Shown here piece by piece: positions 12,207 through 60,018 of a stretch of 64,000 nucleotides of DNA. This stretch comes from a virus (lineage: Duplodnaviria; Caudoviricetes). The stretch lies in the IMG/VR virus record IMGVR_UViG_3300035661_000005. One strand, written 5' to 3'. Under the pieces are notes generated by a model. The model did no database searches, was not told where the DNA came from, and was given only the letters and a program-made list of their open reading frames with translations. A program made the translations under genes and the position numbers. Within the stretch, counting starts at the first letter, position 1, and each line of letters opens with the position of its first letter.

Positions 12207-12416
12207 ATGCCGTCTCCGGTCGATCGTTACCACGACGAGGTCAAGAAGAACAACCCGGACTACTCCGAAGAGCAAGCCTGGGCGACCGCGTGGAGCATCT
12301 ACTGCAAGCACAAGAACCCGGGTTCGGACTCGTGCAAGAAGCCGACGTCCGAGTATCTGAAGGGCAAGGAGGCTTCCCTTGCCCTTCGCGTCGTCGCCCG
12401 GTTCACCAGCCGCTAG
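12207..12416 (+). CDS. small protein with ChaB-like helix and C-terminal RVVARF motif
   Basis: YSEEQAWATAWSIY resembles the ChaB-family A-x-x-x-A-W helix; ends SLALRVVARFTSR. Confidence 0.65.
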   Translation: MPSPVDRYHDEVKKNNPDYSEEQAWATAWSIYCKHKNPGSDSCKKPTSEYLKGKEASLALRVVARFTSR

Positions 12417-13457: not shown

Positions 13458-13708
13458 CCGAAGAGGACTCCCCCGACCTATCGGACTCGGACATCGCAAC
13501 CGCCCTCCCGTGCGCAAGTGCATTGGAGCTGGCCTCGAAGATCCACACGCTCGTTTGCTCGACGTGCCAGGCGAAGGTGGCCGTCACGGCTCACGCTCGT
13601 CGAGTCCGGCTCCCGCACACGTACTGGCGGGTTGCCCTCGTGTGTCGGAACGGGCACCATGAGAATCGACACTTCCAAGCGGACTGGGTGAACGGAGTCG
13701 CTGGATGA
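13454..13708 (+). CDS. small Cys/His zinc-binding hypothetical protein
   Basis: ATG 13454, CSTC...CRNGH, 84 aa. Confidence 0.6.
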   Translation: MTEEDSPDLSDSDIATALPCASALELASKIHTLVCSTCQAKVAVTAHARRVRLPHTYWRVALVCRNGHHENRHFQADWVNGVAG

Positions 13709-13725
13709 ACGGAGTCGCTGGATGA
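13689..13725. repeat. perfect 17-bp tandem duplication at a gene junction
   Basis: TGAACGGAGTCGCTGGA x2 spanning the stop at 13708 and the start at 13722. Confidence 0.9.
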
Positions 13726-14156
13726 GCTGCCCCAACTGTCACAAGACCCCCTGCGGCTGCTTCCAGAACGTCCGGCCGGGGAAGGATCCCGTCCCGGCGC
13801 CGACCGTCTGCGACCCATACCCGACGCCGCTCTCCAAGTGCATGCCGCTGAAGGAGCCGAACGTCTGGATCGAGCGGGGGGACAACTCGGGGAGCGAGAA
13901 CGCCCCCGGCATCTGCCTCCTCGACACGATGTCCGAGGAGCAGGTCATCTTCGTCCTCGAACGGGACCAGAAGGCCCGGGTGGACCTCCTCAAGGTGACG
14001 AACGACCCCCGGCTCCTGGAGCTGGCGCGGACGGTCGAGCCTCTCCCGACGCAAGAGGAGATGGACATGCACCAGAAGTGGTTCAACCGTTCCGATTCCC
14101 CGACCTCGATCCCCTTCTACGCCATCTTCCGGGGTCAGCCCCCGTTCGCTCAGTAG
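13722..14156 (+). CDS. hypothetical protein with Cys-rich N-terminus
   Basis: MSCPNCHKTPCGC..., 144 aa. Confidence 0.7.
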   Translation: MSCPNCHKTPCGCFQNVRPGKDPVPAPTVCDPYPTPLSKCMPLKEPNVWIERGDNSGSENAPGICLLDTMSEEQVIFVLERDQKARVDLLKVTNDPRLLELARTVEPLPTQEEMDMHQKWFNRSDSPTSIPFYAIFRGQPPFAQ

Positions 14157-45363: not shown

Positions 45364-45533
45364 CCTGAAAATGTCCGCCTGCTTCTCCGCTGGCTGGTGT
45401 AGTGCCCTTTCAACCCGGCTGAAGGCCCTCGACCGGGTGTCGCAGGTAAGGAGGCAGCAACCCTCCGGGCTCGCTTCGCAAGCGTGGAGCTTCCCACCAG
45501 TGAGAAACCTAGGGGCACCATGTAGGTAAGATA

Positions 45534-46526
45534 ATGTCGAATGTGGTCACCAGTTGGGACGAGTCCGTGGACAGCACCGCCGGTCTACACACGCGGGCGA
45601 CCCAGATCATGCTCCGCGCCTTCGCGGAGGAGTGCGGCCCCGAGGCGACCGCTCGGGTCTGGAACAAGGTCCTCATCGAGTCGGCGAGGGAGGCGGCCCA
45701 GGCGGCGACGCCCTCGGCTCGCAAGCGGCTCCTGAACAACGACACCCGGGCTCGCGGGGCGCTCCGGACGGCGATCCCCGAGATGTGGGGCAGCTTCGAG
45801 ATCGTCGATGGCGGGTGCCTCAAGGCCAAGGCCGCCCTGAGCAGCAAGGTGGCCGATCCGCCGAAGCCCACGGCGCCGAAGCTCACGCCGATGGAACAGA
45901 GCCTCCTCCTGGCCGCGGTCAAGGCGGGTGGCTTCACCTCCGACGCGGTCAATACGGTCAGCCTCGACGCCAACGACGCCGACCTCCTCCGCAAGGCGGC
46001 CGAGGAGTCCGAACAGGAGGCCCGGCACGACGCGGACTTCACCCGGTCGATGTGCCGCAAGGCGGACGAGATGCTCGCCGAGTACAGCAAGCTCGTCGGC
46101 GACGCCCTCTGGTCCAAGCCGATCATCGTCGAGACCGTCACCGGCCCGGACAACAAGGTCCGCCGGATCATCTTCGTCCGCTCGGCGACGGCGCCGCTGT
46201 TCCGGACGCACGGCCCGATCGTCAAGCACGACTTCCGCGCCAACGGTAAGCCGGTCAACATCAACCACGAGAGCGCCTACCCGCAGCTCGACGGCCTCAA
46301 GCTGATCCGGTCGAGCGTCCACGTGAAGAAGACCCATGAGTACTACGTGAAAGGTCTCAAGTACCAGGACGGCATGTACTTCAAGGGCTACTTCGTGGTC
46401 GACGGCCAGGAGATGGAGCATCTCGCCCGTTACTACCAGGTCCGGGGCAACATGGTCTTCGCGATCACCCAGCAGGAGTACCAGGATCTGGTGAACCGCG
46501 TGGCCGGGGGCTACGACAAGACCTGA
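45534..46526 (+). CDS. hypothetical protein (start uncertain)
   Basis: 330 aa, strong codon bias. Confidence 0.75.
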   Translation: MSNVVTSWDESVDSTAGLHTRATQIMLRAFAEECGPEATARVWNKVLIESAREAAQAATPSARKRLLNNDTRARGALRTAIPEMWGSFEIVDGGCLKAKAALSSKVADPPKPTAPKLTPMEQSLLLAAVKAGGFTSDAVNTVSLDANDADLLRKAAEESEQEARHDADFTRSMCRKADEMLAEYSKLVGDALWSKPIIVETVTGPDNKVRRIIFVRSATAPLFRTHGPIVKHDFRANGKPVNINHESAYPQLDGLKLIRSSVHVKKTHEYYVKGLKYQDGMYFKGYFVVDGQEMEHLARYYQVRGNMVFAITQQEYQDLVNRVAGGYDKT

Positions 46527-46545
46527 TCCGGTGTACTGGGTCGAG

Positions 46546-46650
46546 GTGAACACCCTCGACCATCAGCTCGTTCGAGCTACCCGCAAACAGAAGCGGAAGC
46601 CTGCGGACACGTGGGAACGCCTCCTGGCTGACGACCTGGGGAGCCTGTAA
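46546..46650 (+). CDS. 34-aa micro-protein carrying the TWERLLADD motif
   Basis: GTG exactly 10 nt after GGTGTA; MNTLDHQLVRATRKQKRKPADTWERLLADDLGSL; absent from the ORF track. Confidence 0.7.
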   Translation: MNTLDHQLVRATRKQKRKPADTWERLLADDLGSL

Positions 46651-46790
46651 GACGCCCCCGTGCGGGCAGAAGTACCGGACGGCCCGGTGCCATTCATCCG
46701 GGAGGGCCGGATCGAATTCCTGGACGACTCTGAGCACAAGCTAGCGGATCAGACGGTCGATCTGCCCGAGGTCGGTGTAGAATCGAGGGC

Positions 46791-47054
46791 TTGAGCGTCA
46801 AGCCCTGGCCCCGTGAGCCCCGCACCGTCGACTGCTTCTCGGGGGCGACCTACCCGCCCGGGGAGCCTCTGCGGGACACGCCGGGCACCTTATCCAACGT
46901 CCGAACGTACGAGAACCCATGGCCGAGTCCACCGGCCCTCTGCAAGCACGGGGAGGGCTCGTGTGAGGCTTGCGGTACGACGGTCCGCCGGGACACCCTG
47001 CACACGACTGAGGGCGGCCGTGGGGCCGTTGGGCGGATCCTCAAGCGGAAGTGA
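46791..47054 (+). CDS. hypothetical protein
   Basis: TTG 11 nt after GGTGTA; CKH...CEAC. Confidence 0.55.
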   Translation: MSVKPWPREPRTVDCFSGATYPPGEPLRDTPGTLSNVRTYENPWPSPPALCKHGEGSCEACGTTVRRDTLHTTEGGRGAVGRILKRK

Positions 47055-47094
47055 CCCGCGAGGACGAAGGCTTCGATAAGTAGCGAGGTGTAGG

Positions 47095-47262
47095 ATGAAG
47101 ATCGAGCCCGGTCAGATGTGCATGAACTGCTCGGATAGGCCCGCCACGGTGGCGCAGGGCACGGTCCCCCTCTGTGCCGAGTGCGCGGGGGTGGCGGACG
47201 GGCGGGGGGTCAAACTCCGGAAGACGAAGCATCCGAAGCCTGACCTCGTGAAGTGCGACTAG
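47095..47262 (+). CDS. small zinc-finger protein (55 aa)
   Basis: CMNC...CAEC. Confidence 0.55.
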   Translation: MKIEPGQMCMNCSDRPATVAQGTVPLCAECAGVADGRGVKLRKTKHPKPDLVKCD

Positions 47263-47453
47263 GCGGTGCTTGCCACTGCCGCCAGGATCCGCTTCGGCAG
47301 CTCGCGCATGAAGGCGCGACGGGCGGCCGAGAGGAACTGACGGTTCCTCTTCGAGTAGCCGCGCTCGTTCAGGTTGTCCGGGATCCAGCCGCAGAGACCA
47401 CACGTCTCGGTCGCCGTCGTCTGTCCGCAACAGGGGCAAATGGGCATGCTCAT
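47259..47453 (-). CDS. small zinc-finger protein
   Basis: CPCC...CGLC. Confidence 0.6.
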   Translation of the reverse strand: MSMPICPCCGQTTATETCGLCGWIPDNLNERGYSKRNRQFLSAARRAFMRELPKRILAAVASTA

Positions 47454-47472
47454 CCGACGTTCCCTCCTGACA

Positions 47473-47504
47473 AAGGACGACGGTTCGGATCAACCGTCGT
47501 CCTT
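47473..47504. terminator. perfect 13-bp hairpin
   Basis: AAGGACGACGGTT-CGGATC-AACCGTCGTCCTT overlapping the end of 47490..47882. Confidence 0.45.
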
Positions 47505-47882
47505 CGTGAGTCGTTCGAAGTCCGTCTGCGGGGGAGGTTCCGCCTCCGGAGCCGGTGGGGCGGTCTTCTCGATGACCTTGAAGTGGGGTATGGGAGTGGG
47601 CTGGAAGGTCAGCCCGACCGTCTCCTGCAACATCCTCTCTGCAACCTGTCGCTGTACCGCGTGCGCATCTCGAATCGCCTGGACGGCGTTCATGAGCGAA
47701 CGGTTGAGGTCGAGCTGGTTCCGCACCGCCAGCTCAAGCCGCTCGACCCGGTTCGCGAGCTGCGTCACCCGGTTCGGCATGTGATCTGGCATCACGGCGC
47801 GGCTACGCCACACCCAGTACGAAATGAGACCGTAACAGGCGAGCAGGGTGGCGTTGATGATCACCGAGGCGGTGGGGCTCAC
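47490..47882 (-). CDS. membrane protein with coiled coil and C-terminal TDFERL motif
   Basis: N-terminal TM; GTG 10 nt after GGTGTA; ends QTDFERLTKDDG. Confidence 0.7.
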   Translation of the reverse strand: MSPTASVIINATLLACYGLISYWVWRSRAVMPDHMPNRVTQLANRVERLELAVRNQLDLNRSLMNAVQAIRDAHAVQRQVAERMLQETVGLTFQPTPIPHFKVIEKTAPPAPEAEPPPQTDFERLTKDDG

Positions 47883-47985
47883 GGTTCCCTTCTACACCGT
47901 TGATCGCCGGTCTGGTGCCTTGTAGAAAGGGCATGGGCGTCTACCTCTAGAGCTGGATCCGCTTGCGCTGGTGTAAGGGACAGGC

Positions 47986-48567
47986 GTGCTGATCGACCTT
48001 TCACGCAAGCCGATTCTCGTCATTCCGCACGAAAGCCCAGGACATCTCGTGGTTCGGACCATCGGGAACGCCGAGGTCACGGGCCTTGTCTCCAGGCTCT
48101 ACGAAGCGGACAGCCGCTGGACCAAGGCCCTGATGCAGGTGGTCGATCCCGGGGGCACCTTCAACCGGGGCGCGCTCACCTGCTACGAGACCCGCGTCCC
48201 TTGCGAGGTCCCCTTCAACCGGGACGCCGCCAGCAGCGCCGAGCAACCGATCCTCCCGAACCCCTACGAGGTGGCTACTGTTTTCGTAGACGCGGTCACC
48301 AAGTTTCATGGCCTGTGGCGGATCGCGATCCAGATGGAGCCGTGCCGCAACAAGAACGGGCACATCTACGAGTGGGTCTGTACTTGCACCCATATCGGGG
48401 CGCAGGTGGGGACACCGCTCGTGTCCTGCGTCTTGAGGGACCTGGAGACGCTCGGCTTCAGGGAGACGCCGAAGAAGGAAATCTTCCCTATCAACCGGCA
48501 TCTCAAGCAGACGGCAGAGGGCGGTCAACCCGAGACGGACTGGGATCGTCTCAAGAGCGACGAGTGA
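47986..48567 (+). CDS. hypothetical protein with C-terminal TDWDRL motif
   Basis: GTG 10 nt after GGTGTA; ends ETDWDRLKSDE. Confidence 0.7.
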   Translation: MLIDLSRKPILVIPHESPGHLVVRTIGNAEVTGLVSRLYEADSRWTKALMQVVDPGGTFNRGALTCYETRVPCEVPFNRDAASSAEQPILPNPYEVATVFVDAVTKFHGLWRIAIQMEPCRNKNGHIYEWVCTCTHIGAQVGTPLVSCVLRDLETLGFRETPKKEIFPINRHLKQTAEGGQPETDWDRLKSDE

Positions 48568-48604
48568 AGCGCGTGATCCTGACTTCGAAAAACTCCCGAA
48601 GAAC

Positions 48605-48856
48605 ATGACCCCCGAAACGCTCAAGCTGATGATCGAGCGCACGGAGGCCAGTCGGACGTACAAGGAGGCGATGCGGACCGCGTACTACACGAGCGTGATC
48701 AGCTTGATCTGGCTGTGGTTCGGTACGACGACGGGCCAGATCGTCATCGCTATCGTGGGGTCTCTTGTTCTGCAGGCGGCGGGCTGGCGGTACTGGCGTC
48801 TGAATCGCCATCTGACGGAGCTGACGGGCGAGACTGACGAACCAGGTCGCTGGTGA
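48605..48856 (+). CDS. small two-TM membrane protein
   Basis: Two hydrophobic segments. Confidence 0.55.
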   Translation: MTPETLKLMIERTEASRTYKEAMRTAYYTSVISLIWLWFGTTTGQIVIAIVGSLVLQAAGWRYWRLNRHLTELTGETDEPGRW

Positions 48857-49442
48857 CCTGATCGAGAACGCGCTGGCTCGACTCAGCCAAGGGGGTCGGG
48901 CTTGCCAGCTCGGAGGCGAGCCGGTCGATCATCGCCTGGGTCGGCGCGACCTTGTCGGCGTCATCCACGTAAGGCGGGAGGGGGAACGGCGTGCCACCCG
49001 TTTTGAGGACGTGGATGCGGAGGACGCGGGAGCCCTTCTCGTTGTGCGGGGGGAAGACGAGGGAGGCGGTGAGGCCAATGCGCTCCATGAGCACGCGGAG
49101 GCCCTTCGCCTCTTTCGGGTCACCGTCCGGCCAGCCTTTGTCTCTGGGCCACACGCGGCCATCCCAGCCGAGCGAAGCGAGAACGGTCAGGGCATCGCCC
49201 ATGGTCCGCTCGTTGAGCGGGATGGCCCAGTCCATCGATCCCGAGTGCTCGTCCACGTAGGACTTGAGCAGGATCCCCTGGATGAAGAGCTTGCCCTGGA
49301 TGATGTACCCGAGGAGGGGCAGGAGGCGGTAGATGCTCGCCTGCATCACGGCCTTCCCGATCACGGTCCCGTAGGCGCGATCGGACTCCGGGGTGTTCCG
49401 TTGGTAGTCCTTGATCGCCTTCTCGATCTTCTTCGTGATCAT
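48750..49442 (-). CDS. hypothetical protein
   Basis: 230 aa. Confidence 0.65.
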   Translation of the reverse strand: MITKKIEKAIKDYQRNTPESDRAYGTVIGKAVMQASIYRLLPLLGYIIQGKLFIQGILLKSYVDEHSGSMDWAIPLNERTMGDALTVLASLGWDGRVWPRDKGWPDGDPKEAKGLRVLMERIGLTASLVFPPHNEKGSRVLRIHVLKTGGTPFPLPPYVDDADKVAPTQAMIDRLASELASPTPLAESSQRVLDQVTSDLVRQSRPSAPSDGDSDASTASPPPAEQETPR

Positions 49443-49445
49443 CTT

Positions 49446-49727
49446 TCATCTCCTTGCGCGGCGTACGGCTTCGTCGAATCGAGAGTCCTTCTCGCGGCGC
49501 CGTATCAGCCGCACCTCTCGCTGGTCGTAGAATTCCTCATCTTCGTCCTCGATGTCCACGACGACCGGCGGAGGGTCGTACCTCTCCGAGGCGGGGTCAC
49601 CATCGAACGGGGACCACCCGAGAAGGCGGTCGAAAGCAGACGGGATCCGCTTCCGTCCCAGCTCCTTCTTCTTGGCCTTTTCCATCGCCTTGCGCTCGAT
49701 GACCCGGTGGTCCGTGTTGTCGATCAC
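49446..49727 (-). CDS. hypothetical protein with PSAFDRLL motif
   Basis: 93 aa. Confidence 0.6.
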   Translation of the reverse strand: MIDNTDHRVIERKAMEKAKKKELGRKRIPSAFDRLLGWSPFDGDPASERYDPPPVVVDIEDEDEEFYDQREVRLIRRREKDSRFDEAVRRARR

Positions 49728-50197
49728 GGTGGCGTACTGCCAGTACTCGCCCCCTCAAGGCATTTAGGGCAGGTGACCTTCCCGCCAGCCTGCAGCCGAT
49801 CCAGGAAGAAGTCATCCCTGCATGGGGAGTAGGCGCTGGCCCCCTCGACCCCATTGACGACGTGAACCAGGCCGTCCTTGATGGCGGTGGCGATGGGCTT
49901 GTCGACCCGCTCCAGGATGAGGACCCCCTGTCCGGCCTTGGCGCGGTCCAGCGTCACGAGGGGGTAGACGTAGGTCTCGTAGCGGGGGCGCTCGCCGAAA
50001 GACCACATCTCGTACCCCAGCTCGTAGACGGGGACCTTGTCGGGAATGTGTGGGGAACCCGAGCCCGAGGTCAGTCGTATGTAGTCTGGCGGGCCGTACC
50101 GACCGGGGAGCAACGCCGCAACCCGGGACGACCGCTCGAAAACCGTCGATGTCCCCTCCAGGCGGAGCACTATCTGGTAGAGGGGTCGATTGCGCAT
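49724..50197 (-). CDS. hypothetical protein
   Basis: 157 aa; C-terminal C...CPKC. Confidence 0.6.
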   Translation of the reverse strand: MRNRPLYQIVLRLEGTSTVFERSSRVAALLPGRYGPPDYIRLTSGSGSPHIPDKVPVYELGYEMWSFGERPRYETYVYPLVTLDRAKAGQGVLILERVDKPIATAIKDGLVHVVNGVEGASAYSPCRDDFFLDRLQAGGKVTCPKCLEGASTGSTPP

Positions 50198-50227
50198 GGA
50201 ACCAATGGGGCTTTACACCAAGCCCGG

Positions 50228-50255
50228 TTGATCTGGGAGCCCCCCGACCTGTAGA
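50228..50255 (+). promoter_or_regulatory. class A promoter-like motif
   Basis: TTGATC-N16-TGTAGA, ATG 50262 is 8 nt after TGTA. Confidence 0.75.
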
Positions 50256-50261
50256 GAAGCT

Positions 50262-50429
50262 ATGACGACCGAGCGCCCCTACGTCAGCAGTGACGAGCAG
50301 ATCGGTGCCGAGATCGAGGCCGAGATCCAGGAGATGGCGGCCGAGGTCCGCGCCCAGGAGGCGTACGAGGCCGCGAAGGCTGCCGAGCAGGAGCGCATGG
50401 CCGCCGAAGCGAACACCGCCCTCAAATAA
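50262..50429 (+). CDS. small acidic helical protein (55 aa)
   Basis: MTTERPYVSSDEQIGAEIEAEIQEMAAE...; absent from the ORF track. Confidence 0.65.
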   Translation: MTTERPYVSSDEQIGAEIEAEIQEMAAEVRAQEAYEAAKAAEQERMAAEANTALK

Positions 50430-50724
50430 CCGGCTTGCGGGGCGGGGGCTTAAGAGGCTCGGGTTTGCCGAGGAAGTCTTGCCCCATGAGGCTACGATCC
50501 TTGATGGCGACCGGCTTGGCGGCCGGTCGCTCCTTGTCGAGGTCGTGTTTGTCGTAGATTTGGTCAGCCCAGGTCCGCTGCTTCGGCGAGAGTCCGGCGA
50601 CGTTGCCCGAGGCGACCCGATCGTACATCGCCTGGAAGCTGGACCTCTCCGAAGGCGTGAGCATCCCGTCGGGGAGGCTCAACAAGGCCCGGAGCACTTG
50701 GAGGTCGGTCTTCTTCTTGGGCAT
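50422..50724 (-). CDS. hypothetical protein
   Basis: MPKKKTDLQVL...LSPKQR. Confidence 0.6.
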   Translation of the reverse strand: MPKKKTDLQVLRALLSLPDGMLTPSERSSFQAMYDRVASGNVAGLSPKQRTWADQIYDKHDLDKERPAAKPVAIKDRSLMGQDFLGKPEPLKPPPRKPVI

Positions 50725-50849
50725 CACATCACCGGAAGGACAGGTTGAGGTTCGTTCGGATCGTTTCGCTGCGCAGGATCTCATGCAGCCCTGAATCGGT
50801 CACGCGATCGTCTACACCGGAGGGGCTGCCCTCGGTGTAAGAGATCTCT

Positions 50850-52106
50850 GTGGGCTACCTAAACCCCCCGCTGAGCCCGACCAGCTTCCTGCTCTGGCTC
50901 GGGGACACCAGGATCAAGTCTTGGACATGGAAGCACACCCATGTCAACCGAACGGAGGAACCCGTGACCCAACCCGTGACGCCAATGCCGGTGAAAGAGC
51001 CGGAAGTACCAAACCTCCTGCTGGAGGCGTTCAACCGCAAGATCGAAGAGGATGTTCGGCCGACGCTGACCCTCCTGGAGACAATTCGAGATCAGCTCGC
51101 GACCTATGAGGCCAAGGTCAAAGAGGATGCGAAGCAGAAGGCCCTCGGAGCGATGCTCGCGGCCATCGGCCAGCCGATCAAGACGGCGGCTCCGTCCACA
51201 GAGGTCGAGAAGGGCTTGCGGTCGAGCATCTTCTCGCTCCTCGAACAGCTGGGTGGTGCGCCCCCTCTCGTAGAGGCCGTCTCGGACAAGGCTGAGGCCG
51301 AGACGGTCCGTGCGGATGTCAGCCCGGAAGAGGATCAGAGGCAAGCCGACCCCGACCTTCTCAGCGAGGAGCTGGATGCCCAGCTGTACCTCGAAGAGAT
51401 CGATCGGTTCGGTCAGGAGGCCCACCAGCTCGTCAAGGCGCGTGCCGAGTGTGAGCTGCAGTGGCTCGTGGCTTCGGTACGGTTGACGATGTGTCGGCTT
51501 CCCGTGCAGAACGAGTACTACGGCAAGCTCTCGAATGCGATCCCCATCCTGTCCGCCATCCGGCGCCAGATCGGGGTCACGGACTTCACGAAGGGGCTGG
51601 CTCAGGGGCAGACGTTCCCCTGGGAGCAGATCATCCGTGATAGCGCCCAGGCGATGGCCAAGTTCGACGCCATCGCCGAACTTGGCCACGAGCCGAAGCC
51701 GAAACCGAAGACGCAGGGCACCCAGGGACAAGCGGAACCCACGAGCTACGCGTGGCCGAAGCTCCCCTCGCTCCGCTCCAAGCTGCAGGGTAAGACGTTC
51801 GCCATTGTCGGGGGCATCGCGGTCAACGAGAAGACCGCGCTCATCAAGAAGCGCTTCGGCTTCGACGTGGAGTGGCTGGAGATCGACCAGGGGGCCGCCC
51901 GGCAGACCGACGCCATCTCACGGAAGATCCGCAGCGGCACGGTCGGGGCCGTGATTCTGCTGGAGTCCTTCATGCCGCACAAGGCCACGTCGGCCGTCTC
52001 CGACGCGTGCAACGCGGCCCACGTGCCCTGGGTTTACGGTGGTCGTTGCGGCGTCGGAGCGATCGAGGGTGCGCTCAACAGCCTGGAGGACAAGCTGGCG
52101 AGCTAG
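50850..52106 (+). CDS. hypothetical protein with DUF2325-like C-terminal domain
   Basis: FAIVGG...VILLESFMPH...ACNAAHVPWV; GTG 10 nt after GGTGTA. Confidence 0.65.
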   Translation: MGYLNPPLSPTSFLLWLGDTRIKSWTWKHTHVNRTEEPVTQPVTPMPVKEPEVPNLLLEAFNRKIEEDVRPTLTLLETIRDQLATYEAKVKEDAKQKALGAMLAAIGQPIKTAAPSTEVEKGLRSSIFSLLEQLGGAPPLVEAVSDKAEAETVRADVSPEEDQRQADPDLLSEELDAQLYLEEIDRFGQEAHQLVKARAECELQWLVASVRLTMCRLPVQNEYYGKLSNAIPILSAIRRQIGVTDFTKGLAQGQTFPWEQIIRDSAQAMAKFDAIAELGHEPKPKPKTQGTQGQAEPTSYAWPKLPSLRSKLQGKTFAIVGGIAVNEKTALIKKRFGFDVEWLEIDQGAARQTDAISRKIRSGTVGAVILLESFMPHKATSAVSDACNAAHVPWVYGGRCGVGAIEGALNSLEDKLAS

Positions 52107-52795
52107 TCGTCCAATGCGAAGCCTCGGGTGAGGATGCGCATCGACTTCACCGAGGGGGCCTTTTTGCGGCGATCCTTGAGGAGCGGCGCCGGCCATCGGC
52201 CTGGGACCGCCTCCTCGAAGAGTGACGGGGGCTGTTTCAAGTTGGCTACCCCCTCCGTGAAGGCCATTCGTGCCCACACGTCCCCATCAAGAACGGCGAT
52301 CCCGGCCAGGTACTCCTGCTCCACCTTGATGGCGGCCTCGTGGATCGCCTCTGCCTCCTGGAGGGTTCGCTTGCGGAGGTGGATCTTGTTCCGCCCGCCG
52401 GGGATGACCCCAGAGAGGACGATGATCCGGTCGTAGACGGGACTCGTGTCGAGGCTGAAGATCGCCGGGTCCTGCTTGATATTGAATCGCTTGGCCGTGG
52501 TCAGGGTGGCCCCCACAGCCATCGCAGCGGCCCTCTGTGCGTCCCATGTCGTTTCGTCCACCCCTCGGGGCACCCGGGGAGTCCCATCCAACCTAGCGCC
52601 GACAGTGCCGTAGCAATTGTAGCGATCGCAGGCGTAGAAGCGGCCGAAGCGGCCCCTCTCCAGGTGCGTAGGGCCGCCACAGTCGGGGCACGCGACGACG
52701 CCTTGGTAGGTCACCGGCGTGTTGTTCATCTGCCGCCGGATGACGTTCCACCACTTCGTCGAGTACTGCCGTTCTACTGTGACGGCTCCGGGCAT
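52103..52795 (-). CDS. zinc-finger protein (topoisomerase C4 / DUF3268-like)
   Basis: CPDCGG...GRFGRFYACDRYNCYGTVGA..DGTP. Confidence 0.6.
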   Translation of the reverse strand: MPGAVTVERQYSTKWWNVIRRQMNNTPVTYQGVVACPDCGGPTHLERGRFGRFYACDRYNCYGTVGARLDGTPRVPRGVDETTWDAQRAAAMAVGATLTTAKRFNIKQDPAIFSLDTSPVYDRIIVLSGVIPGGRNKIHLRKRTLQEAEAIHEAAIKVEQEYLAGIAVLDGDVWARMAFTEGVANLKQPPSLFEEAVPGRWPAPLLKDRRKKAPSVKSMRILTRGFALDD

Positions 52796-52916
52796 GGTTC
52801 CTCGACCCGGGTGATGGTCGGCAGGGGCGTTCCACTGATCTGCCGTGGATGACTCCGAGCACGGTCCTTATCCATGCCCCGTCTACAGGATGAGTCACGG
52901 CTGGATCGATAAGACC

Positions 52917-52940
52917 AAAGCCCCGCGCGAGCGGGGCTTT
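52917..52940 (-). terminator. intrinsic terminator hairpin
   Basis: AAAGCCCCGC-GCGA-GCGGGGCTTT, 20 nt after the 35-aa gene. Confidence 0.75.
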
Positions 52941-52961
52941 GCATGCTGTCCGGCGACCCGG

Positions 52962-53069
52962 TCAGCTCTTCGCCGCCGACTTCTTGGCAGCGGTCTTCGC
53001 GGGAGCCTTCTTCGCAGCGGGAGCCTTCTTCGCAGCGGACTTCTTCGCGGGAGCCTTCTTCGTGGCCAT
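52962..53069 (-). CDS. 35-aa histone H1-like A/K/P peptide
   Basis: MATKKAPAKKSAAKKAPAAKKAPAKTAAKKSAAKS; strong SD AAAGGAGGTGA, class B motif upstream, own terminator. Confidence 0.8.
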   Translation of the reverse strand: MATKKAPAKKSAAKKAPAAKKAPAKTAAKKSAAKS

Positions 53070-53129
53070 GTGGAATCACCTCCTTTCGATCTGGTTTTCT
53101 ACACCGGGTGTGGAGAACCTGTAAAGCGT

Positions 53130-53552
53130 TTAGTCGTCAGCGAGGAGGCGATCCCAGGCGGTATCCGCCTCCCTGGGCTCCGGACTCGCCTCGATGGGGT
53201 ACCACCTGTGGCCAGCCCTCCGAGCGTCGGCCCAGGCGGTGAACGAGACGACGTGGTAGTCGAGGCCCTCGGATGGCCAGTAGACTCGATCCGGGGGTCC
53301 ACCGACCTCGTCCGGCTCGATGTCCGCGGCGTCGTAGAAGAAGATCCACGCGCCGTTGGTGATCCGGATGAAGACGGGGTTCGCCTCGGCGGGCTTGATG
53401 TTTGCCCTGCCAGCCGCGATCTCGATGAAGCCATCGGTAAACCGTTGGGCCAACTCCTCCGCGGCGATCGAGTTCTTGGTCAGGAACAGGATCGACCGGC
53501 CCAGGAGAAGATCGGCGACGGCTAGCTCGAACAGTTTGCGATCTAGGCGCAC
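53130..53552 (-). CDS. hypothetical protein with C-terminal TAWDRL motif
   Basis: GTG 10 nt after GGTGTA; ends DTAWDRLLADD. Confidence 0.7.
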   Translation of the reverse strand: MRLDRKLFELAVADLLLGRSILFLTKNSIAAEELAQRFTDGFIEIAAGRANIKPAEANPVFIRITNGAWIFFYDAADIEPDEVGGPPDRVYWPSEGLDYHVVSFTAWADARRAGHRWYPIEASPEPREADTAWDRLLADD

Positions 53553-53561
53553 GATCCAGGT

Positions 53562-54173
53562 CTACACCAGGTTGTCGTCCCACCGATCGAGGAAGTCGCT
53601 GTTCGCCAGCCGTTCGAAGTCGGTTGGGATGGATCGACGCTCCAGGGCGTGGGGCACTTCCCTGTTCGCGCTGATACGGCTCGTCCGCGAGGGGTCCTCC
53701 GTGACCCGCATGTGAGGCTCGGGGATCTGCCTGCGAGGCTCCAGTGCTTGCCGCGCACGCTCGGCGGGGGTCATGTCCCGGAAGGCACGAACATTCCCCA
53801 CGACCTGGCCGTCGCTCGGCCCCTCCAGGCGCTCCCGTCGGAACGTGCTCGGCGGCGGGCTCTCCCGATCGACTCGGAAGCGGCCACGGCGTTCGGCTGG
53901 GCCGGCTGCGACATCCAGCCGCAGGTCGTCCATGTCGAAGGAGATCTCGTCGGGCACGGGGGTATCGGGCGGGAAGTTAGTGACGAGGTTGGATACCCAG
54001 GCGTCCTCGCTCATCGGTGGCACACGCCCAAGGTCTTCCCTGGCGGTCACAACTCGGATAGGGACTCCAGGGGTGACGAGGCGCGACTGCTGCATGGCAG
54101 TCGCTGCCGCCAGCTCCCGTTGTGCGGAAGCCGACAGTAGCATCGCTGGATCCAGCGGAGGTAGCTTCGGCAT
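53562..54173 (-). CDS. R/P-rich hypothetical protein with TDFERL motif
   Basis: Start MPKLPPLDP; near the end PTDFERLANSD. Confidence 0.6.
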   Translation of the reverse strand: MPKLPPLDPAMLLSASAQRELAAATAMQQSRLVTPGVPIRVVTAREDLGRVPPMSEDAWVSNLVTNFPPDTPVPDEISFDMDDLRLDVAAGPAERRGRFRVDRESPPPSTFRRERLEGPSDGQVVGNVRAFRDMTPAERARQALEPRRQIPEPHMRVTEDPSRTSRISANREVPHALERRSIPTDFERLANSDFLDRWDDNLV

Positions 54174-54645
54174 ACCCTTCGACCTACGGCACAGGCTGCG
54201 CGAAAGCAACACATAACCTGTGGAAATCGTACACGTTTTCAAGGGTCGGCGTGGAAGGGTGCGAGATCGTTAGTGAAAGTTCTTGGATTCCTCTGGTATG
54301 GAGGTCCCCCGTGCGGCCACCGCCGAATCGGAAACCGAAGTCCTGTCACGGCAACGAGCACATAGGCTATCAGCACTGTGCGGGGTGCAGGAGAGGTCGG
54401 CCTCAATGCGCGGCCATGCGGAAGAAGAACCCCAAGCGAGCGCCATGCGGCTGCGACGCCTACCACTTCCCGCACAGGAAGGGCTCGGGCCGCTGCGGGA
54501 ACCTATTCCAGCAGACGATGGACGCCACGCCCGAGGACGAACGTGGGACGGTCCTAGAGCGGTTCGCGATCGAGTGTCCGGACATGATACCGCACACCCG
54601 CGACGAGTTTGCCGACGTCCCCTTCTGATCGGTGTATAAGGCTTC

Positions 54646-54939
54646 GTGGTCAAGGACGACAAATCCCCGCCGGTCAGCGATCCCCGATGGGCCGAATGGT
54701 CCAAGCCGCTCCTGGAGTACCTAGCGGCCCCGCACACGTGGAAGGAGATGCGGGCGAGCGTCCGCATGCCGGAGGACAAGCTCCGTAACTGCCTTATCTG
54801 GCTAGAGATCTACGGGCTCGTCGTGGACTACGAGATCGAGGGCGTGGCGACGTGGATCAAAACCGGGGGCTGGCGAATTCCAGGATCGCCCGGAGACGCA
54901 GCTGCCCAGCCCGGCCGAGAAAGCTCACGGGGGTCCTGA
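54646..54939 (+). CDS. small winged-helix-like hypothetical protein
   Basis: GTG 9 nt after GGTGTA; TWKEMR...KLRNCLIWLEIYGLV. Confidence 0.55.
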   Translation: MVKDDKSPPVSDPRWAEWSKPLLEYLAAPHTWKEMRASVRMPEDKLRNCLIWLEIYGLVVDYEIEGVATWIKTGGWRIPGSPGDAAAQPGRESSRGS

Positions 54940-55058
54940 CCGCCCAGCCGAGGTCCAGGAGGTGCGCCTCCTTGTCGCCGAGGCTTCGCCTCAGCGCCGC
55001 TGCCATGCCGGGGTACTAGCAGTTCTCGTGGAGCGCCCGTGTGCGTCAGAGGCAGTGG

Positions 55059-55628
55059 TCATCGTCTATGCCATCCAGCGATGCGGATCATGGCACGGAA
55101 GCTCGCCCCCTTGGTCTTCTTCGACCCGAGGCTGAGCGGGAACGTGACGGTGAGCTTGTCGTCGCCGTTGTCCCCGCCCCAGAGTACAAGCTCGGCCACG
55201 GTCCAACCAACCGGATCCATCAGCTGGTCGGTGACTTTTTCCTTCGAGTAGGCCAGGGTGACGTGCGGCACGTACTCCGGGTACTTCTTCGAGTACGCAA
55301 CGCCAGCCTCATCGAGGGCGATCTTGAGCTGCTCCCGTAGCTTGTGCAGCTCGGAGGACTCGACCCTGCAGATGATCGGGTAACCCCCACCCTCGCCGGA
55401 ATCGAAGCATGACACGAGGGAGGTCTCGACGGGGATGGGCTTGCAGCCCTTCAGCACGTTGAAGATGGCGTTCGTAGCGGTCGCGATCTGGTCCACGGGA
55501 ACGTCGTCCCCAAGATCCAAGATCGTGATGTGCATCCGACCGGGGGCCTCTTTCTGGCCCGGAACGGAGATTCCGGAAAGCCGGCGAGCGATCTCCAGGG
55601 GGACGCGAATTCCGAGGAATGCCATCAT
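55059..55628 (-). CDS. 2H phosphoesterase (LigT / T4 57B-Acb1-like)
   Basis: Two HxT motifs: MHITILDLG and PHVTLAY. Confidence 0.88.
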   Translation of the reverse strand: MMAFLGIRVPLEIARRLSGISVPGQKEAPGRMHITILDLGDDVPVDQIATATNAIFNVLKGCKPIPVETSLVSCFDSGEGGGYPIICRVESSELHKLREQLKIALDEAGVAYSKKYPEYVPHVTLAYSKEKVTDQLMDPVGWTVAELVLWGGDNGDDKLTVTFPLSLGSKKTKGASFRAMIRIAGWHRR

Positions 55629-55660
55629 ACCGTGTTTTCTATTGGTAGATCCGTAGGGAT

Positions 55661-56512
55661 ATGACGTTCCCCACGAACCCCACCGAGCGGGATGCCTACA
55701 TCCTTCAGCGCGTCCGGGAAGGCGAATTCAGCCTCGATTGGGCGCCCATCGAGCTGGAGGAGGACGGCTTCAAGGTCATCCTCTACGTCCAGGCGGACGC
55801 ACTGAAGATCGAGGGTGTCCGGATCAACGTGACGGCCGAAATGTCCCAGCAGATCGCGGACATGACGGGCGCCGTGCTTCTGACGCCCAAGGTCGCGGAC
55901 CTCATCTACCACTTCGCGGCCTTCCGGATCGAGCCGCATCCGCAGACGTGGAACAACACCACGCAGGGGATGATCGACCACAGCAAGGCGATCGACGCCG
56001 CCCTCGCTGCGTACACGACCTACGGGATGGCGAACACGCCGCTCATCGGGGTCACGGGGAAGTACTGGACGCTCTCGAACACCCTCCTCGGGTCGGACGG
56101 GAAGCCGCGGATCGCGCAGGGCTTCCCGGTCGCCATGAACTACGGGTGGCACTTCCTCGGTGGGTCGTCCTTCAAGGGGATCCCGGGCTACGAGTGCGTC
56201 TCCCACCTCCGTGACCCGTCGACCAAGGAGGTCTACCACGTCATCCAGGACGCGGCGACGGCGCACAACAGCAAGCACGGGGACTACAGCCAGACGCACC
56301 GTTCGATGGCCGATGTGCTCATCGTGAACGGGGAGAACATGGCGACGGTGGACGCCCTCAGGCACCCGGTCATCGGGAAGATGCTGAGTCACGAGGGGCC
56401 GCTCCACGTGGTTCGGCAACCGGGCGTTCCGGAGCCGAAGGAGAAGGTCATCATCATGCCGGAGATCACGATCACGGCGAGCGCGGAGATCGTGCCCGCG
56501 GGGGGCGGGTAA
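55661..56512 (+). CDS. conserved hypothetical protein (QADALK/LLTPK/NYGWH/HxDYSQ)
   Basis: 283 aa; has a degraded paralogue at 25771; TCTATT 23 nt upstream. Confidence 0.8.
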   Translation: MTFPTNPTERDAYILQRVREGEFSLDWAPIELEEDGFKVILYVQADALKIEGVRINVTAEMSQQIADMTGAVLLTPKVADLIYHFAAFRIEPHPQTWNNTTQGMIDHSKAIDAALAAYTTYGMANTPLIGVTGKYWTLSNTLLGSDGKPRIAQGFPVAMNYGWHFLGGSSFKGIPGYECVSHLRDPSTKEVYHVIQDAATAHNSKHGDYSQTHRSMADVLIVNGENMATVDALRHPVIGKMLSHEGPLHVVRQPGVPEPKEKVIIMPEITITASAEIVPAGGG

Positions 56513-56784
56513 TGCGCCGACTCTCCCGCCTTTGCCTTGCCGCCCGGACGTTGAACGAGAACGCCGAGGTGCTTTTCAGCGCTGTCCCAGGGCCAGCCCA
56601 GCTCTGGATCGTCAAGGTGACCGTGGGGGATATCATCTTCGTCGAGACGGAACCGATGGCCCTGGAGAAGGGCCTCGAAGCTGCCACAACCAAGCTCCGG
56701 AGCCTAAGCCAGCGGACGCTTCGAGCGGTTACGCTGACCCAGCCACTGGACACGGAAGAGGAGCCGCCTTCGTCAGAGCCCTGA
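56512..56784 (+). CDS. hypothetical protein
   Basis: TAATG overlap, 90 aa. Confidence 0.55.
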   Translation: MRRLSRLCLAARTLNENAEVLFSAVPGPAQLWIVKVTVGDIIFVETEPMALEKGLEAATTKLRSLSQRTLRAVTLTQPLDTEEEPPSSEP

Positions 56785-56942
56785 GCCAAGGGCGTTGTAG
56801 ACCCAGATGGGCGGGCGGGGAAGCCACGATTCAGGCTTTTCGGCCCGCCCGTTCTGCCTGTAGTTCAGGCTCGACTTGTTGTGGAACACATGCCGTTTCT
56901 CACCATTCCGAAGAGGCGACCTCTGGTGTAGAGGGGGAGGGG

Positions 56943-57445
56943 ATGTTCGCTCGCGCTTGGGTGGACCACCACCCGTACCTGACGTGGTTTCTCCCGGGCC
57001 TGGTCGTTCTGTTCGTCCGTGCCTTGTGGCGAGCGATGCTGCGCCGAATCGAGGATCTGGTGTGGCGGGCCATCTACACACGATCCTCGACGTCCGCACG
57101 GAGCACCACATCGAGGCCACAGACGCCGAGATCCGTCAGGCGATGCGGGAGATCATGCAGTATGCTCGCTACCGCCACGTCCCGATCAACATCGTGGCGT
57201 GGACGGGGGAGGAGGCTGCGAACCTACGTCAGCTGCTCTCATCCGGGCACGTGACGAACAGGCCAAGCTCCCCGAGGCGGCAACGCAGGGAGGCTGAGGA
57301 AATGGCCCCGGAGGACGTCCCGAGTGCTTGGGACAGGCTTCTGGTAGATGAGACGGAGACGCCCACATGTCCGAAGAACGAAGCCCCACCGAAGCCGCAG
57401 AGGTTGACGCCCCCAGCAAAGCCCAAGAGGTTGAGGAAGGGCTGA
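56943..57445 (+). pseudogene. probable frameshifted membrane protein with PSAWDRL motif
   Basis: MFARAWVDHHPYLTWFLPGLVVLFV... shifts frame at TACACACG (~57077) into TILDVRTEHH...PSAWDRLLVDE. Confidence 0.5.
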
Positions 57446-57891
57446 AAGCCTCCTGGGAGGCTGTCCGAGGGGAACCCGTCGAGTCGCCGGAAGAGCGGAT
57501 CGATCGTCAGCATCCAGGCGACCTGGTCATCGCGACCTCGCACGACCGGATCCTCGTCCGTATCCACCCGGACGGGCAAATGACCTTCGGTCCGGAGTAC
57601 ACACCGGATGAGGCGGCGGAGACTCTTCTGACGCGGATCGCGGTCAAGCGCGTCGCGATGGAAGAACGCCTCACGCACCTCAGCATGATGGAACAGATCG
57701 TCCAGCAGGTAGGTGCAGCCGACCTGCATTACGAGGCGATGCAAACGGCTGCACGTGCGGAGGAGCATACTGCCCATGATGAATTCATGGAGGAGATTGC
57801 CCGCCGCAACCTCGAAGCCCGTGTTCACCAGTTCATCGAATTCGCGAGGGGGGTCGCCTTGGCCCGTCGCCGTGGGAGCCCGACACTATGA
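57367..57891 (+). CDS. hypothetical protein
   Basis: 174 aa, acidic. Confidence 0.65.
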   Translation: MSEERSPTEAAEVDAPSKAQEVEEGLKASWEAVRGEPVESPEERIDRQHPGDLVIATSHDRILVRIHPDGQMTFGPEYTPDEAAETLLTRIAVKRVAMEERLTHLSMMEQIVQQVGAADLHYEAMQTAARAEEHTAHDEFMEEIARRNLEARVHQFIEFARGVALARRRGSPTL

Positions 57892-58811
57892 GCCACATCC
57901 TGACCGCCGCGCAGTTCACCTCGGACGACATCCACGCCACGTTCAACCTGGCCAAGCGCCTCGAATCCGCGAGCGTCCGTGGTCGGGCTACGCACATGAT
58001 CGGCAAGACGCTCGCCTGCGTCTTCTACGAGCCGAGCACCCGTACCTCGTCGAGCTTCATCGCGGCCATGACGAAGCTCGGCGGTGGGGTCATCCCGATC
58101 ACGCAGGGTGTGCAGTTCTCGTCCGTGACGAAGGGTGAGACGATCGAGGACACCGTGGTCACGCTCGGGCAGTACGCGGACGCGATCGTTCTGCGGCACC
58201 CGGAGGTCGGTTCGGTGGCCCGTGCGGCGGCTGTGAGCCCCGTGCCGGTCATCAACGCCGGGGACGGCATCGGGGAGCACCCGACGCAGGCGATGCTCGA
58301 CCTCTACACGATCTACCAGGAGTGCGGGACGCTCGACGGGCTCACGATCACCTTCGTCGGCGACCTGGCGAACGGGCGGACCATCCACAGCCTCGTCCAG
58401 CTCCTCTCCCGGTTCGACGTCCGGTTCAACCTCGTCTCACCGCACCTCCTGCGCCTCGGGAGTCAGGCAGCCTACGGGCTCGACGGGAAGGTCGACGCGG
58501 AGATCTTCACGAAGACCGGCTTGCACGAGGCGGCCGACGTCCTCCGCAACTCCGATGTGATCTACATGACCCGGGTCCAGAAGGAGCGCTTCGCCCACGA
58601 CTACACGTACCAGGAGGTCAAAAACTCCTGCCTCCTGACGCCAGAGCTGGTGGCGGAGATGAAGCCCACGGCGCGCATCCTGCACCCGTTCCCCCGCGTC
58701 AACGAGATCCCCACGGAGATCGACGCGGACCCCCGCGCCGCCTACTTCAAGCAGATCAAGAACGGGCTCTACGTGCGCATGGCCCTGCTGATGCGTACGA
58801 TCGGGAGTTGA
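57888..58811 (+). CDS. pyrB: aspartate carbamoyltransferase catalytic subunit
   Basis: FYEPSTRT, LRHP, NAGDG..EHPTQ, GDL..GRT, YMTRVQKER, HPFPR. Confidence 0.96.
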   Translation: MSHILTAAQFTSDDIHATFNLAKRLESASVRGRATHMIGKTLACVFYEPSTRTSSSFIAAMTKLGGGVIPITQGVQFSSVTKGETIEDTVVTLGQYADAIVLRHPEVGSVARAAAVSPVPVINAGDGIGEHPTQAMLDLYTIYQECGTLDGLTITFVGDLANGRTIHSLVQLLSRFDVRFNLVSPHLLRLGSQAAYGLDGKVDAEIFTKTGLHEAADVLRNSDVIYMTRVQKERFAHDYTYQEVKNSCLLTPELVAEMKPTARILHPFPRVNEIPTEIDADPRAAYFKQIKNGLYVRMALLMRTIGS

Positions 58812-58906
58812 TCGGCGAGCCTCTCGGGCGATCCGCCATGCCGGGAAGGACGAGGCTCGCTGAGGGGCTGAAGGACCTGGAGTGTGCTCCGGTGTAGATC
58901 AGCACC

Positions 58907-59110
58907 ATGGGCATCAAGCACTGGAACACGAACGGGCTGGTCGACGGGAACATCCCGCCAGGTCAGCCTTGCCCGTTTCTGGCCAAATGCGGGCTCAAGG
59001 ACGAACGCTGCCCCGGGCACGAGGGCGGGTTCAAACTGTGGCCATTCTCGTGCGCAGCGGCCCGTGGTTGGTCCATGTGCGCCAACGATGAACGGGGCGA
59101 GGATACCTGA
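58907..59110 (+). CDS. small Cys-rich protein
   Basis: ATG 10 nt after GGTGTA; CPF...C...C...CAAAR. Confidence 0.65.
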   Translation: MGIKHWNTNGLVDGNIPPGQPCPFLAKCGLKDERCPGHEGGFKLWPFSCAAARGWSMCANDERGEDT

Positions 59111-59114
59111 ACCC

Positions 59115-59411
59115 ATGGCGATCCGTGCGTCTGAGGTCCGACCGGGGGCGATCCTCAGGGTCAAAGACCAGGCCCTACACACGTACAACGAGTCTTACCA
59201 GCGGGTCGGGCTCCTACGTGTAGGCCGGGTTTTCCACGTCATCGACCGCGATTTGCAGTACGTCTACGTGAAGCTGTCCGCCGAGAAGACGACCCGGCTC
59301 TACGGAGCAGAGGTCACCAAGTACTGCGAGAAGGCCCTCCCCAAACCGAAGCGCAAGGGGCCGAAGCCGCCAACCGCCTGGGAGCGGATCCTAGAGGACA
59401 AGAATGAATGA
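59115..59411 (+). CDS. SH3/KOW-like protein with C-terminal TAWERI motif
   Basis: MAIRASEVRPGAILRV...; ends PTAWERILEDKNE. Confidence 0.7.
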   Translation: MAIRASEVRPGAILRVKDQALHTYNESYQRVGLLRVGRVFHVIDRDLQYVYVKLSAEKTTRLYGAEVTKYCEKALPKPKRKGPKPPTAWERILEDKNE

Positions 59412-59673
59412 CCTGGCCGAGACGGAATTCGCCGAGCACGGGTGCATCGCCGTGAGGCGGGACGTGAAGGGGCAACGGGTCGTGTGCGCGAGGGACTATC
59501 ACCCGCGATCCGGGGACGAGATCTGGGTGCCCGCGAGGAACGGCTTCAACTGGCCCGTGAAGATCATGAAGGACCACCGGGGGACGCCGATCTTCAAGTT
59601 CGGCACGCAGAAGGTGGCACTGAAGTTCGATCAGAAGCGACAGATGTGGGTGATCCCCGACCTCCTCGGTTGA
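59404..59673 (+). CDS. hypothetical protein
   Basis: 89 aa. Confidence 0.6.
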   Translation: MNDLAETEFAEHGCIAVRRDVKGQRVVCARDYHPRSGDEIWVPARNGFNWPVKIMKDHRGTPIFKFGTQKVALKFDQKRQMWVIPDLLG

Positions 59674-59697
59674 TCAGGACCGCCGTGCCGCTGTAAA
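59670..59697 (+). promoter_or_regulatory. class A promoter-like motif
   Basis: TTGATC-N16-TGTAAA, ATG 8 nt after TGTA. Confidence 0.75.
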
Positions 59698-59703
59698 AAA
59701 GGC

Positions 59704-60018
59704 ATGGCCACCGCCACCGCCACCGCCGCTGCCAAGAACTTCGTTTGGATCGACTGCCCGCGGTGCTCGGGTCACGGGCACCGCCCCGAGTGGCACCCGG
59801 ATCGCGGCATGTGCTACCGCTGCCGCGGGAAAAAGGAAGTCCGCATCTGCGTGGAGAGCCACCTGGCCGCCCTCCGCCACCTCCGCGCGAAGTACGTCTC
59901 GGTGAAGAAGTTGGCGGCCGAGGGCAACGAGCTGGCCGCCGAGTTTCTCCCGTACGTCATCCAGGACGGCCTTCGCGTCCGTCAGGATCTTGAGGCTGCC
60001 GGCATCACGGTGCCGTGA
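59704..60018 (+). CDS. zinc-finger protein (CxxCxGxG)
   Basis: CPRCSGHG...CYRCRG. Confidence 0.7.
   Translation: MATATATAAAKNFVWIDCPRCSGHGHRPEWHPDRGMCYRCRGKKEVRICVESHLAALRHLRAKYVSVKKLAAEGNELAAEFLPYVIQDGLRVRQDLEAAGITVP

Follow-up and report, generated by a model that had tools for sequence, protein, structure and literature searches.

A short linear motif recurring near the ends of unrelated small proteins in an uncultured jumbo-phage group, and its probable role as a docking peptide

A short peptide motif was found to recur in mutually unrelated small proteins encoded by a 64,000-nucleotide stretch of DNA (IMG/VR record IMGVR_UViG_3300035661_000005; Caudoviricetes), which is termed the window in its whole length, originates from an uncultured jumbo phage and has a GC content of 64%. 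The motif, with the consensus P-x-[TSN]-[A/V/D or R]-[W/F]-[D/E]-R-[L/I]-[L]-x-[D/E]-[D/E], is real, hugely enriched, biased toward the ends of open reading frames (ORFs), kept at the protein level, and gained or lost as a module. It probably acts as a portable docking peptide for one conserved reader protein, displayed by unrelated accessory proteins of a group of uncultured jumbo phages. An earlier note, made from the letters of the window, had pointed out eight copies of the motif and proposed that they dock on a single hub protein; this interpretation, taken as a whole, is partly supported.

The carriers were named C1 to C8 in window order, and the four residues [WF][DE]R[LI] are referred to as the core. 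All eight peptides are present as the earlier note quoted them, and the coding frame of every copy is backed by codon-position GC as well as by independent gene calls of the Joint Genome Institute on identical contigs; the positions quoted with the peptides mostly mark the ends or starts of ORFs instead of the motif sites. The carriers, with lengths in amino acids (aa), are as follows.

C1, 46531 to 46650, plus strand: a 39-aa micro-protein with a GTG start at 46531; core WERL at 46612-46623, 8 residues before the stop.
C2, 47490 to 47882, minus strand: 130 aa; core FERL at 47508-47519, 5 residues before the stop.
C3, 47986 to 48567, plus strand: 193 aa; core WDRL at 48541-48552, 4 residues before the stop; belongs to a family with at least 60 clusters.
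C4, 49446 to 49727, minus strand: a 93-aa ORF with an internal core FDRL at 49623-49634.
C5, 53130 to 53552, minus strand: a 140-aa orphan; core WDRL at 53145-53156, 4 residues before the stop.
C6, 53562 to 54014, minus strand: 150 aa by an independent gene call; core FERL at 53607-53618, 14 residues before the stop.
C7, 57062 to 57445, plus strand: 127 aa; core WDRL at 57329-57340, followed by a 34-residue Pro/Lys-rich tail.
C8, 59088 to 59411, plus strand: 107 aa; core WERI at 59379-59390, 6 residues before the stop.

These proteins differ markedly in layout. C1, which starts 4 nt past the stop of a 330-aa gene (45534-46526), contains little beyond a basic stretch and the motif; its length is 39 aa from the GTG, in place of the 34 aa that had been claimed, which would presumably reflect a start at 46546. 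C2 is composed of an N-terminal hydrophobic segment, a helical middle and a Pro-rich linker, and its N-terminal run of about 21 hydrophobic residues is probably a transmembrane segment; this run, read by eye, is the sole basis of the transmembrane label given previously. C6 is mostly Pro/Arg/Glu-rich, and its ORF is open to 54242. C8 has a small beta-rich body and a Lys/Pro linker, and its single-sequence structural model, which is of low confidence (pLDDT 47) and is all that the former label of an SH3-like protein can draw on, displays five strands, with motif residues 97-105 helical after a coil. No match for any of the eight carriers was found in Pfam or PHROG, C5 and C8 matched themselves only in a word-based search, and C3 as a single query gave no match in viral contigs.

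In spite of these differing bodies, the motif occupies a consistent place. The core lies 4-14 residues from the stop in six of the eight carriers, as had been claimed, and 34 and 58 residues from it in the other two. In the 15 residues ahead of the motif, Pro reaches 17.5% vs 5.8% (3-fold), Lys and Glu are raised about 2-fold and Arg 1.6-fold, while hydrophobic residues are depleted, a disorder-like composition that agrees with the P/K/R-rich linker noticed earlier. The peptide is also distinct from this genome's RVVARF-type tag, since the pattern R[VI][VIA]xR[FYW] is absent from all eight carriers, as had been stated.

The enrichment test proposed in the earlier note gave a clear outcome. In a six-frame scan of the window, [WF][DE]R[LI] was seen 17 times vs 5.1 expected, and the six-residue form [TS][AD][WF][DE]R[LI] was seen 8 times vs 0.11 expected, with every match inside 46.5-59.4 kb, where the copies had been said to cluster; in the crude proteome the same form was seen 5 times vs 0.015 (2000 shuffles). 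This pattern was set post hoc, after the data had been seen, and its excess recurs in independent genomes. The latter are five distant jumbo-phage records, G001 to G005 (148-407 kb, 51-59% GC), which were found via a conserved 283-aa neighbour of the carriers (55661-56512; 34-43% identity with this protein as query) and analysed whole. Among six-frame ORFs of at least 50 aa from the window and G001-G005, [TS]x[WF][DE]R[LI] was present in the last 22 residues of 25 ORFs vs about 0.95 from shuffles; the counts per genome were 6, 3, 6, 3, 3 and 4, each exceeding the maximum of that genome's own 200 shuffles. A DNA pattern for P-[ST]-A-W-[DE]-R-L-L returned nine matches in viral contigs, all apparently due to chance.

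The eight copies are written with different synonymous codons, including CGC, CGA, CGT, CGG and AGG for Arg and TCT, TCG and AGT for Ser. Such differences at synonymous sites, which extend to the CGN/AGG and TCN/AGT codon families, indicate that conservation acts on the peptide and not on DNA or through recent duplication, so that recent copying of one gene tail, named in advance as the outcome that would overturn the proposal, fails as an explanation.

The strongest conservation was revealed in the C3 family. An exhaustive profile-free search with C3 yielded 61 cluster representatives (27-46% identity), and the tail is kept in 58 of 60 single-domain members with the form P-x-[TNS]-[AV]-W-[DETS]-R-[LI]-x-[DE]-D-[DE] and a median of six residues past the core. 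In these tails the Trp is present in 58/58, the Arg in 44/58 and Leu or Ile in 57/58, and an alignment of 34 family members at 26-42% identity has only five invariant columns, among them that of the motif Trp. Further contigs with the C3 family (L131, L133 and L134; GC 0.59-0.66), the first of which is syntenic with the window, harbor additional unrelated genes with the tail.

All five relatives G001-G005 carry the motif at ORF ends, with tails such as PTAWERL.., PSLWERLADD-stop, PTLWDRLL.., PSRFERILNED-stop, PTRFERI-stop and TRFERLLKDSD... Body homology among the 40 candidate carriers of the six genomes was limited to 2 pairs, and most candidates have no homologue in the other genomes, which together with the lack of Pfam and PHROG matches bears out the description of the carriers as unrelated. 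One carrier family in the relatives bears the motif N-terminally, and one G002 carrier is a Ser/Thr kinase in which the motif precedes the catalytic domain. Conservation in homologues with diverged bodies, suggested as a check, was observed beyond the C3 family: C6 and its G001 orthologue share 26% identity and keep the motif at the C-terminus, and C4 resembles a single 272-aa ORF in G002 (358371-359189) at 34% identity with the motif kept internally, while in the G003 orthologue of this G002 protein the motif has decayed. Another G002 protein (357469-357870), itself a carrier, has a G003 orthologue that stops just before the tail, which implies that the tail is acquired or lost as a whole.

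Two observations on gene arrangement may be added here. C4 and the ORF upstream of it (49724-50197, 157 aa) share a four-base overlap at the stop of the upstream ORF, which, judged by eye, resembles the 272-aa G002 protein. In G002, the genes at 357147-357488 (+) and 357469-357870 (-) are convergent with a 20-nt overlap, and both encode the motif at their ends, one on either strand.

The eight copies counted previously are real, and the count was incomplete, since a ninth copy, PSAWDRLLEE-stop, lies at 52187-52225 on the plus strand, antisense to the gene 52103-52795 (-) and with no start codon in its frame. It is read as the remnant of a second C3-family paralogue from which about 130 internal codons have been lost.

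C3-family paralogue remnant, 52134 to 52225, plus strand: starts with an ATG at 52134 (MRIDFTEGA) and overlaps the 3' end of the convergent gene 52103-52795.

Its tail, RRRPSAWDRLLEE-stop, lies one base back (frame -1) from a five-G run at 52154-52158. The counterpart in L131 (12942-13427), after the DUF2325 gene, is an intact 161-aa protein that starts with MLIDFTEGA and ends in the motif tail; its N-terminal 36 residues resemble the C3 family (hhalign probability 86%, E 5e-6), and its gene overlaps the convergent neighbour by 127 nt. A frameshift reading of the ninth copy was considered and replaced by the remnant reading; visual inspection of the final ~90 nt of the DUF2325 gene revealed no canonical slippery heptamer. 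Slippage on the G run might conceivably still produce a peptide of 30 residues.

The variants of the motif differ between genomes and change in step across the carriers of each. In G002, G003 and G005, Arg or Lys stands ahead of the aromatic in 26 of 31 copies, and 30 of 31 have Phe as the aromatic itself; among the 15 copies of the window, G001 and G004, none has Arg or Lys at that position and 10 have Trp as the aromatic. This concerted change, occurring on different carrier genes in each genome, fits one reader protein per genome with a drifting specificity. A phage-encoded reader seems likelier than one supplied by the host, given that the motif is shared by phages of 51-66% GC and that its variant differs from genome to genome.

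A mechanism can be proposed in which a disordered Pro/Lys/Arg/Glu-rich linker would tether the motif to the C-terminus, less often to the N-terminus or the interior, of numerous accessory proteins that evolve fast and are unrelated to one another. S/T-x-x-E is a helix N-capping box, and the Ser/Thr/Asn at position -2 with the Asp/Glu at +1 may form such a box and start a short amphipathic helix, on one face of which Trp/Phe (0), Leu/Ile (+3) and Leu (+4) would be placed. The Arg and the acidic run might provide electrostatic specificity, the peptide would be bound by one conserved reader protein, and the carriers would thus be brought to a single site or machine within the infected cell.

Several points weigh against this reading of the motif as a docking peptide with a single reader. 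The total counts in G003 and G005 exceed the compositional expectation only modestly (8 vs 5.3-5.4), and the signal in these two genomes consists in the position at ORF ends. The per-genome switch of variants is confounded with phylogeny, since the three genomes with the R-F form may represent one clade, and copying of tails within a genome could be another source of the switch. The helix is likewise debatable, because several copies in the relatives, ending FERI-stop or FDRL-stop in G002, G003 and G005, terminate directly after the core; such copies are too short for a helix, and the bound form may be extended. They argue for the six-residue [ST]-x-[WF]-[DE]-R-[LI] as the indispensable unit, with a long helix perhaps unneeded. 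Moreover, the search for a partner identified none, and the term docking draws on analogy with known linker-plus-peptide tails. Of the earlier proposal of a docking motif for one hub, the portable and selected short linear motif has held, while the single hub is an inference.

Should the docking reading be correct, it would be of interest in several respects. Few short docking motifs have been described in phages, though such motifs organise much of eukaryotic and eukaryotic-virus biology. The motif ties otherwise unannotatable orphan genes together across an uncultured jumbo-phage group and offers a first functional handle on them, and discovery of the reader protein would assign an entire class of dark-matter proteins to a single pathway. 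The peptide is also short and portable, with clear loss-of-function positions (Trp, Arg and Leu), and could serve as a tag given its partner.

Among the hubs that the earlier note had listed, only the phage ClpX can be placed, as judged from the predicted proteins: it is present in the window (4264-6522, plus strand, with a Hint/LAGLIDADG intein within the Walker A motif) and belongs to the core of the clade, where it is among the best conserved genes (57-63% identity). This leads to the rival explanation that the motif is a degradation or delivery tag, through which phage ClpX and host ClpP would clear early or accessory proteins on schedule by way of the ClpX N-domain or an adaptor. It is in keeping with this explanation that the phage ClpX retains a zinc-finger N-domain, the GYVG pore loop and the LGF ClpP-docking loop, that no phage ClpP was found in the complete relative (G002), so that a host ClpP would serve, and that the order of body, linker and peptide is the SspB layout. 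ClpX N-domain ligands such as the LRVVK of SspB are, however, basic and hydrophobic, whereas the motif is acidic and aromatic, and the RVVARF-type tag of the same genome is far closer to the SspB peptide. Degrons for the ClpX pore (LAA, RRKKAI) stand at the very end of the protein, whereas the core lies 0-58 residues from the C-terminus and some copies are N-terminal or internal. We regard the degradation tag as unlikely for these reasons. A role as a cargo or compartment address, by which the carriers would be loaded into the virion or into some compartment or filament built by the phage, seems improbable to a similar extent. The architecture of such addresses is the same, namely unrelated cargo, a flexible linker and a short C- or N-terminal peptide, and a core protein of ~397 aa ending in [FY]ERI[TG] could mark a natural ligand of the same site; yet this ending shares only four residues with the motif and has no Ser/Thr, and the carriers are situated among small non-structural genes and not beside head or tail genes. 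The genome also possesses another terminal tag already, the one that the earlier note had called the virion tag.

Two further explanations fared worse. S/T-x-x-D/E is the consensus of acidophilic kinases, and the Ser/Thr of the motif might accept a phosphate from a phage or host kinase, with the remaining residues as its recognition sequence; the Ser/Thr kinase that itself carries the motif in G002 fits such a scheme. The kinase is absent from G003 and G005, although both use the motif; Asn, which is not phosphorylatable and is a good helix N-cap, takes the Ser/Thr position in 18 of 58 C3-family members; and conservation is higher at the Trp, Arg and Leu than at the Ser/Thr, all of which renders phosphorylation very improbable. 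It is hardly credible, finally, that the motif has no present function and represents either leftovers of a single ancestral gene end that duplication or recombination has spread, or a compositional accident. Short motifs can indeed spread by illegitimate recombination, and one window copy is a dead-looking remnant, but the Trp is invariant in a family at ~30% identity, the synonymous sites have diverged, and the motif recurs on non-homologous carriers in six genomes and further contigs at counts never reached by shuffles.

The docking reading was also compared with known systems. The motif has the general features of a short linear motif, being 3-10 residues long, located in disordered sequence, conserved against diverging flanks and present on unrelated proteins. 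In kind it is a familiar device, a terminal docking peptide common to several proteins, and the peptide itself is undescribed in the libraries and papers searched, as no description was found in the literature searched, nor in Pfam or PHROG. Its layout is like that of the SspB XB tail and similar adaptor tethering peptides, in which a conserved end peptide of 6-10 residues, joined to the folded body through a long flexible linker, docks on a hub; in the carriers, too, a short peptide ends a flexible Pro/Lys/Arg/Glu-rich linker. The consensus differs, since the SspB tail is an L-R-V-V-K-like, hydrophobic and basic peptide on one adaptor, whereas [WF]-[DE]-R-[LI] followed by acidic residues is found on many unrelated proteins. 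The fixed extreme C-terminus and non-polar or basic end of ClpX pore degrons are likewise missing, given the variable distance to the stop and the acidic ends.

Other terminal peptides are formally similar to various degrees. The bacterial beta-clamp motif (Q-L-[SD]-L-F or Q-x-x-L-x-x-F) is excluded by the absence of Gln and of a terminal Phe pair from every copy, the tip of the SSB C-terminus (D-D-D-I-P-F) by an aromatic that precedes the acidic run and by variable ends, and class III PDZ ligands (X-[DE]-X-hydrophobic-COOH) by the fact that no window copy ends at a free C-terminus, although several in G002, G003 and G005 do (FERI-stop, FDRL-stop). The C-termini of T4 gp43, gp33 and gp55, which bind the gp45 clamp, and the acidic aromatic tails of T7 gp2.5/gp4 are phage-specific hydrophobic or acidic end peptides through which several different proteins compete for one phage-encoded hub. 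Those tails have another consensus and sit on replication and transcription proteins with a known hub, whereas the motif carriers comprise orphans, a probable membrane protein and a kinase, the last being the only one with a Pfam or PHROG family. Encapsulin cargo-loading peptides, microcompartment encapsulation peptides and the T4 capsid targeting sequence share with the motif a terminal peptide after a linker, at either end, on unrelated cargo; they differ from it in consensus, and the motif carriers, known here from genes alone, are not adjacent to a shell or capsid gene. The RVVARF-type tag is likewise terminal, but is a different peptide. The eukaryotic LD motif (LDxLLxxL) and LIR core ([WFY]xx[LIV]) have a formal likeness only (aromatic or Leu, acidic residue, Leu pair, acidic flanks), and their reader proteins (FAT domain and Atg8, respectively) are eukaryotic.

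With regard to the reader, one small core protein that is not itself a carrier attracted attention.

Small core protein, 50422 to 50724, minus strand: ~100 aa, with a conserved helical N-terminal part, a Pro-rich linker and a conserved PLKPPGR end.

It shares 70% identity with its L131 copy (11652-11945), compared with 37-54% for the neighbouring genes, excluding PyrB (64%). Orthologues are encoded in G002 (334092-334382), G003 (13576-13875) and G005 (264809-265099); the gene is followed directly by a carrier in G002 and G005, and by a gene with a decayed copy of the motif in G003. The protein belongs to no family or PHROG and has no solved relative. This association with carriers hints weakly at a candidate reader or adaptor. 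An arrangement of plug and socket, in which a protein of this type reads the tails on dozens of accessory proteins and its own tail couples to a machine, e.g., the phage ClpX with host ClpP, is a speculative extension to which we give little credence; if true, about ten acquired codons would confer regulated localisation or turnover on any new gene.

Other candidates were discarded. The Ser/Thr kinase is not suited as a hub, being present in G002 alone; a small BRCT reader protein was not found, as BRCT matches occur only in ORFs of 618-683 aa, a length that would presumably fit an NAD-dependent DNA ligase; and the DUF2325 protein has no detectable homologue in G001 or G002, which argues against a general reader. 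A 254-aa protein ending in FDRLRIDVG proved to be a chance match, with the residues in a beta-sandwich strand. Complex prediction for C1 (39 aa) with its 330-aa neighbour gave an ipSAE of 0.00 in both runs, which were made without controls, so that it neither supports nor opposes binding.

Two proteins deserve mention as observations in their own right. A 69-aa protein (12207-12416, plus strand), 67% identical in G002 and located a few kb from ClpX in both genomes, ends ..LALRVVARFTSR and has a layout like a miniature SspB-type adaptor. The protein of ~397 aa is encoded in G002 (170606-171799) and has orthologues in G001, G003, G004 and G005 at 56-68% identity; it ends [FY]ERI[TG]-stop in all five relatives, with only the four-residue core in common with the motif. 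Its gene lies in a block of large, structural-looking genes (1171-aa and 1439-aa neighbours), none of them annotated. It has no family and no solved relative, and its model is too poor to interpret.

Short genes on either strand make up the mosaic-like region of 45.5-60 kb, and few of them have families, namely 2H phosphoesterase, aspartate carbamoyltransferase, DUF1653, DUF2325 and a topoisomerase-type zinc ribbon. Against the cultured-phage collection, no DNA match to the window region and no DNA or protein match to the 283-aa neighbour was found, and the ClpX matches there were uninformative. Four contigs from other samples equal the window sequence or are one base off, and hence carry no polymorphism information. 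In the interval 45500-60000 no sigma-70-like promoters above background were detected. Between the zinc-ribbon gene and C5 lies a 35-residue ORF (52962-53069, minus strand) composed of nearly all Lys, Ala and Pro, a histone H1-like composition. Finally, a GGTGTAGA / GGTGTAAG-like box recurs 8-16 nt 5' of many start codons on both strands of the same interval, e.g., ahead of C2, C3, C5, 54646 and the minus-strand ORF at 52962, and probably represents the element that the earlier note had designated as class B.

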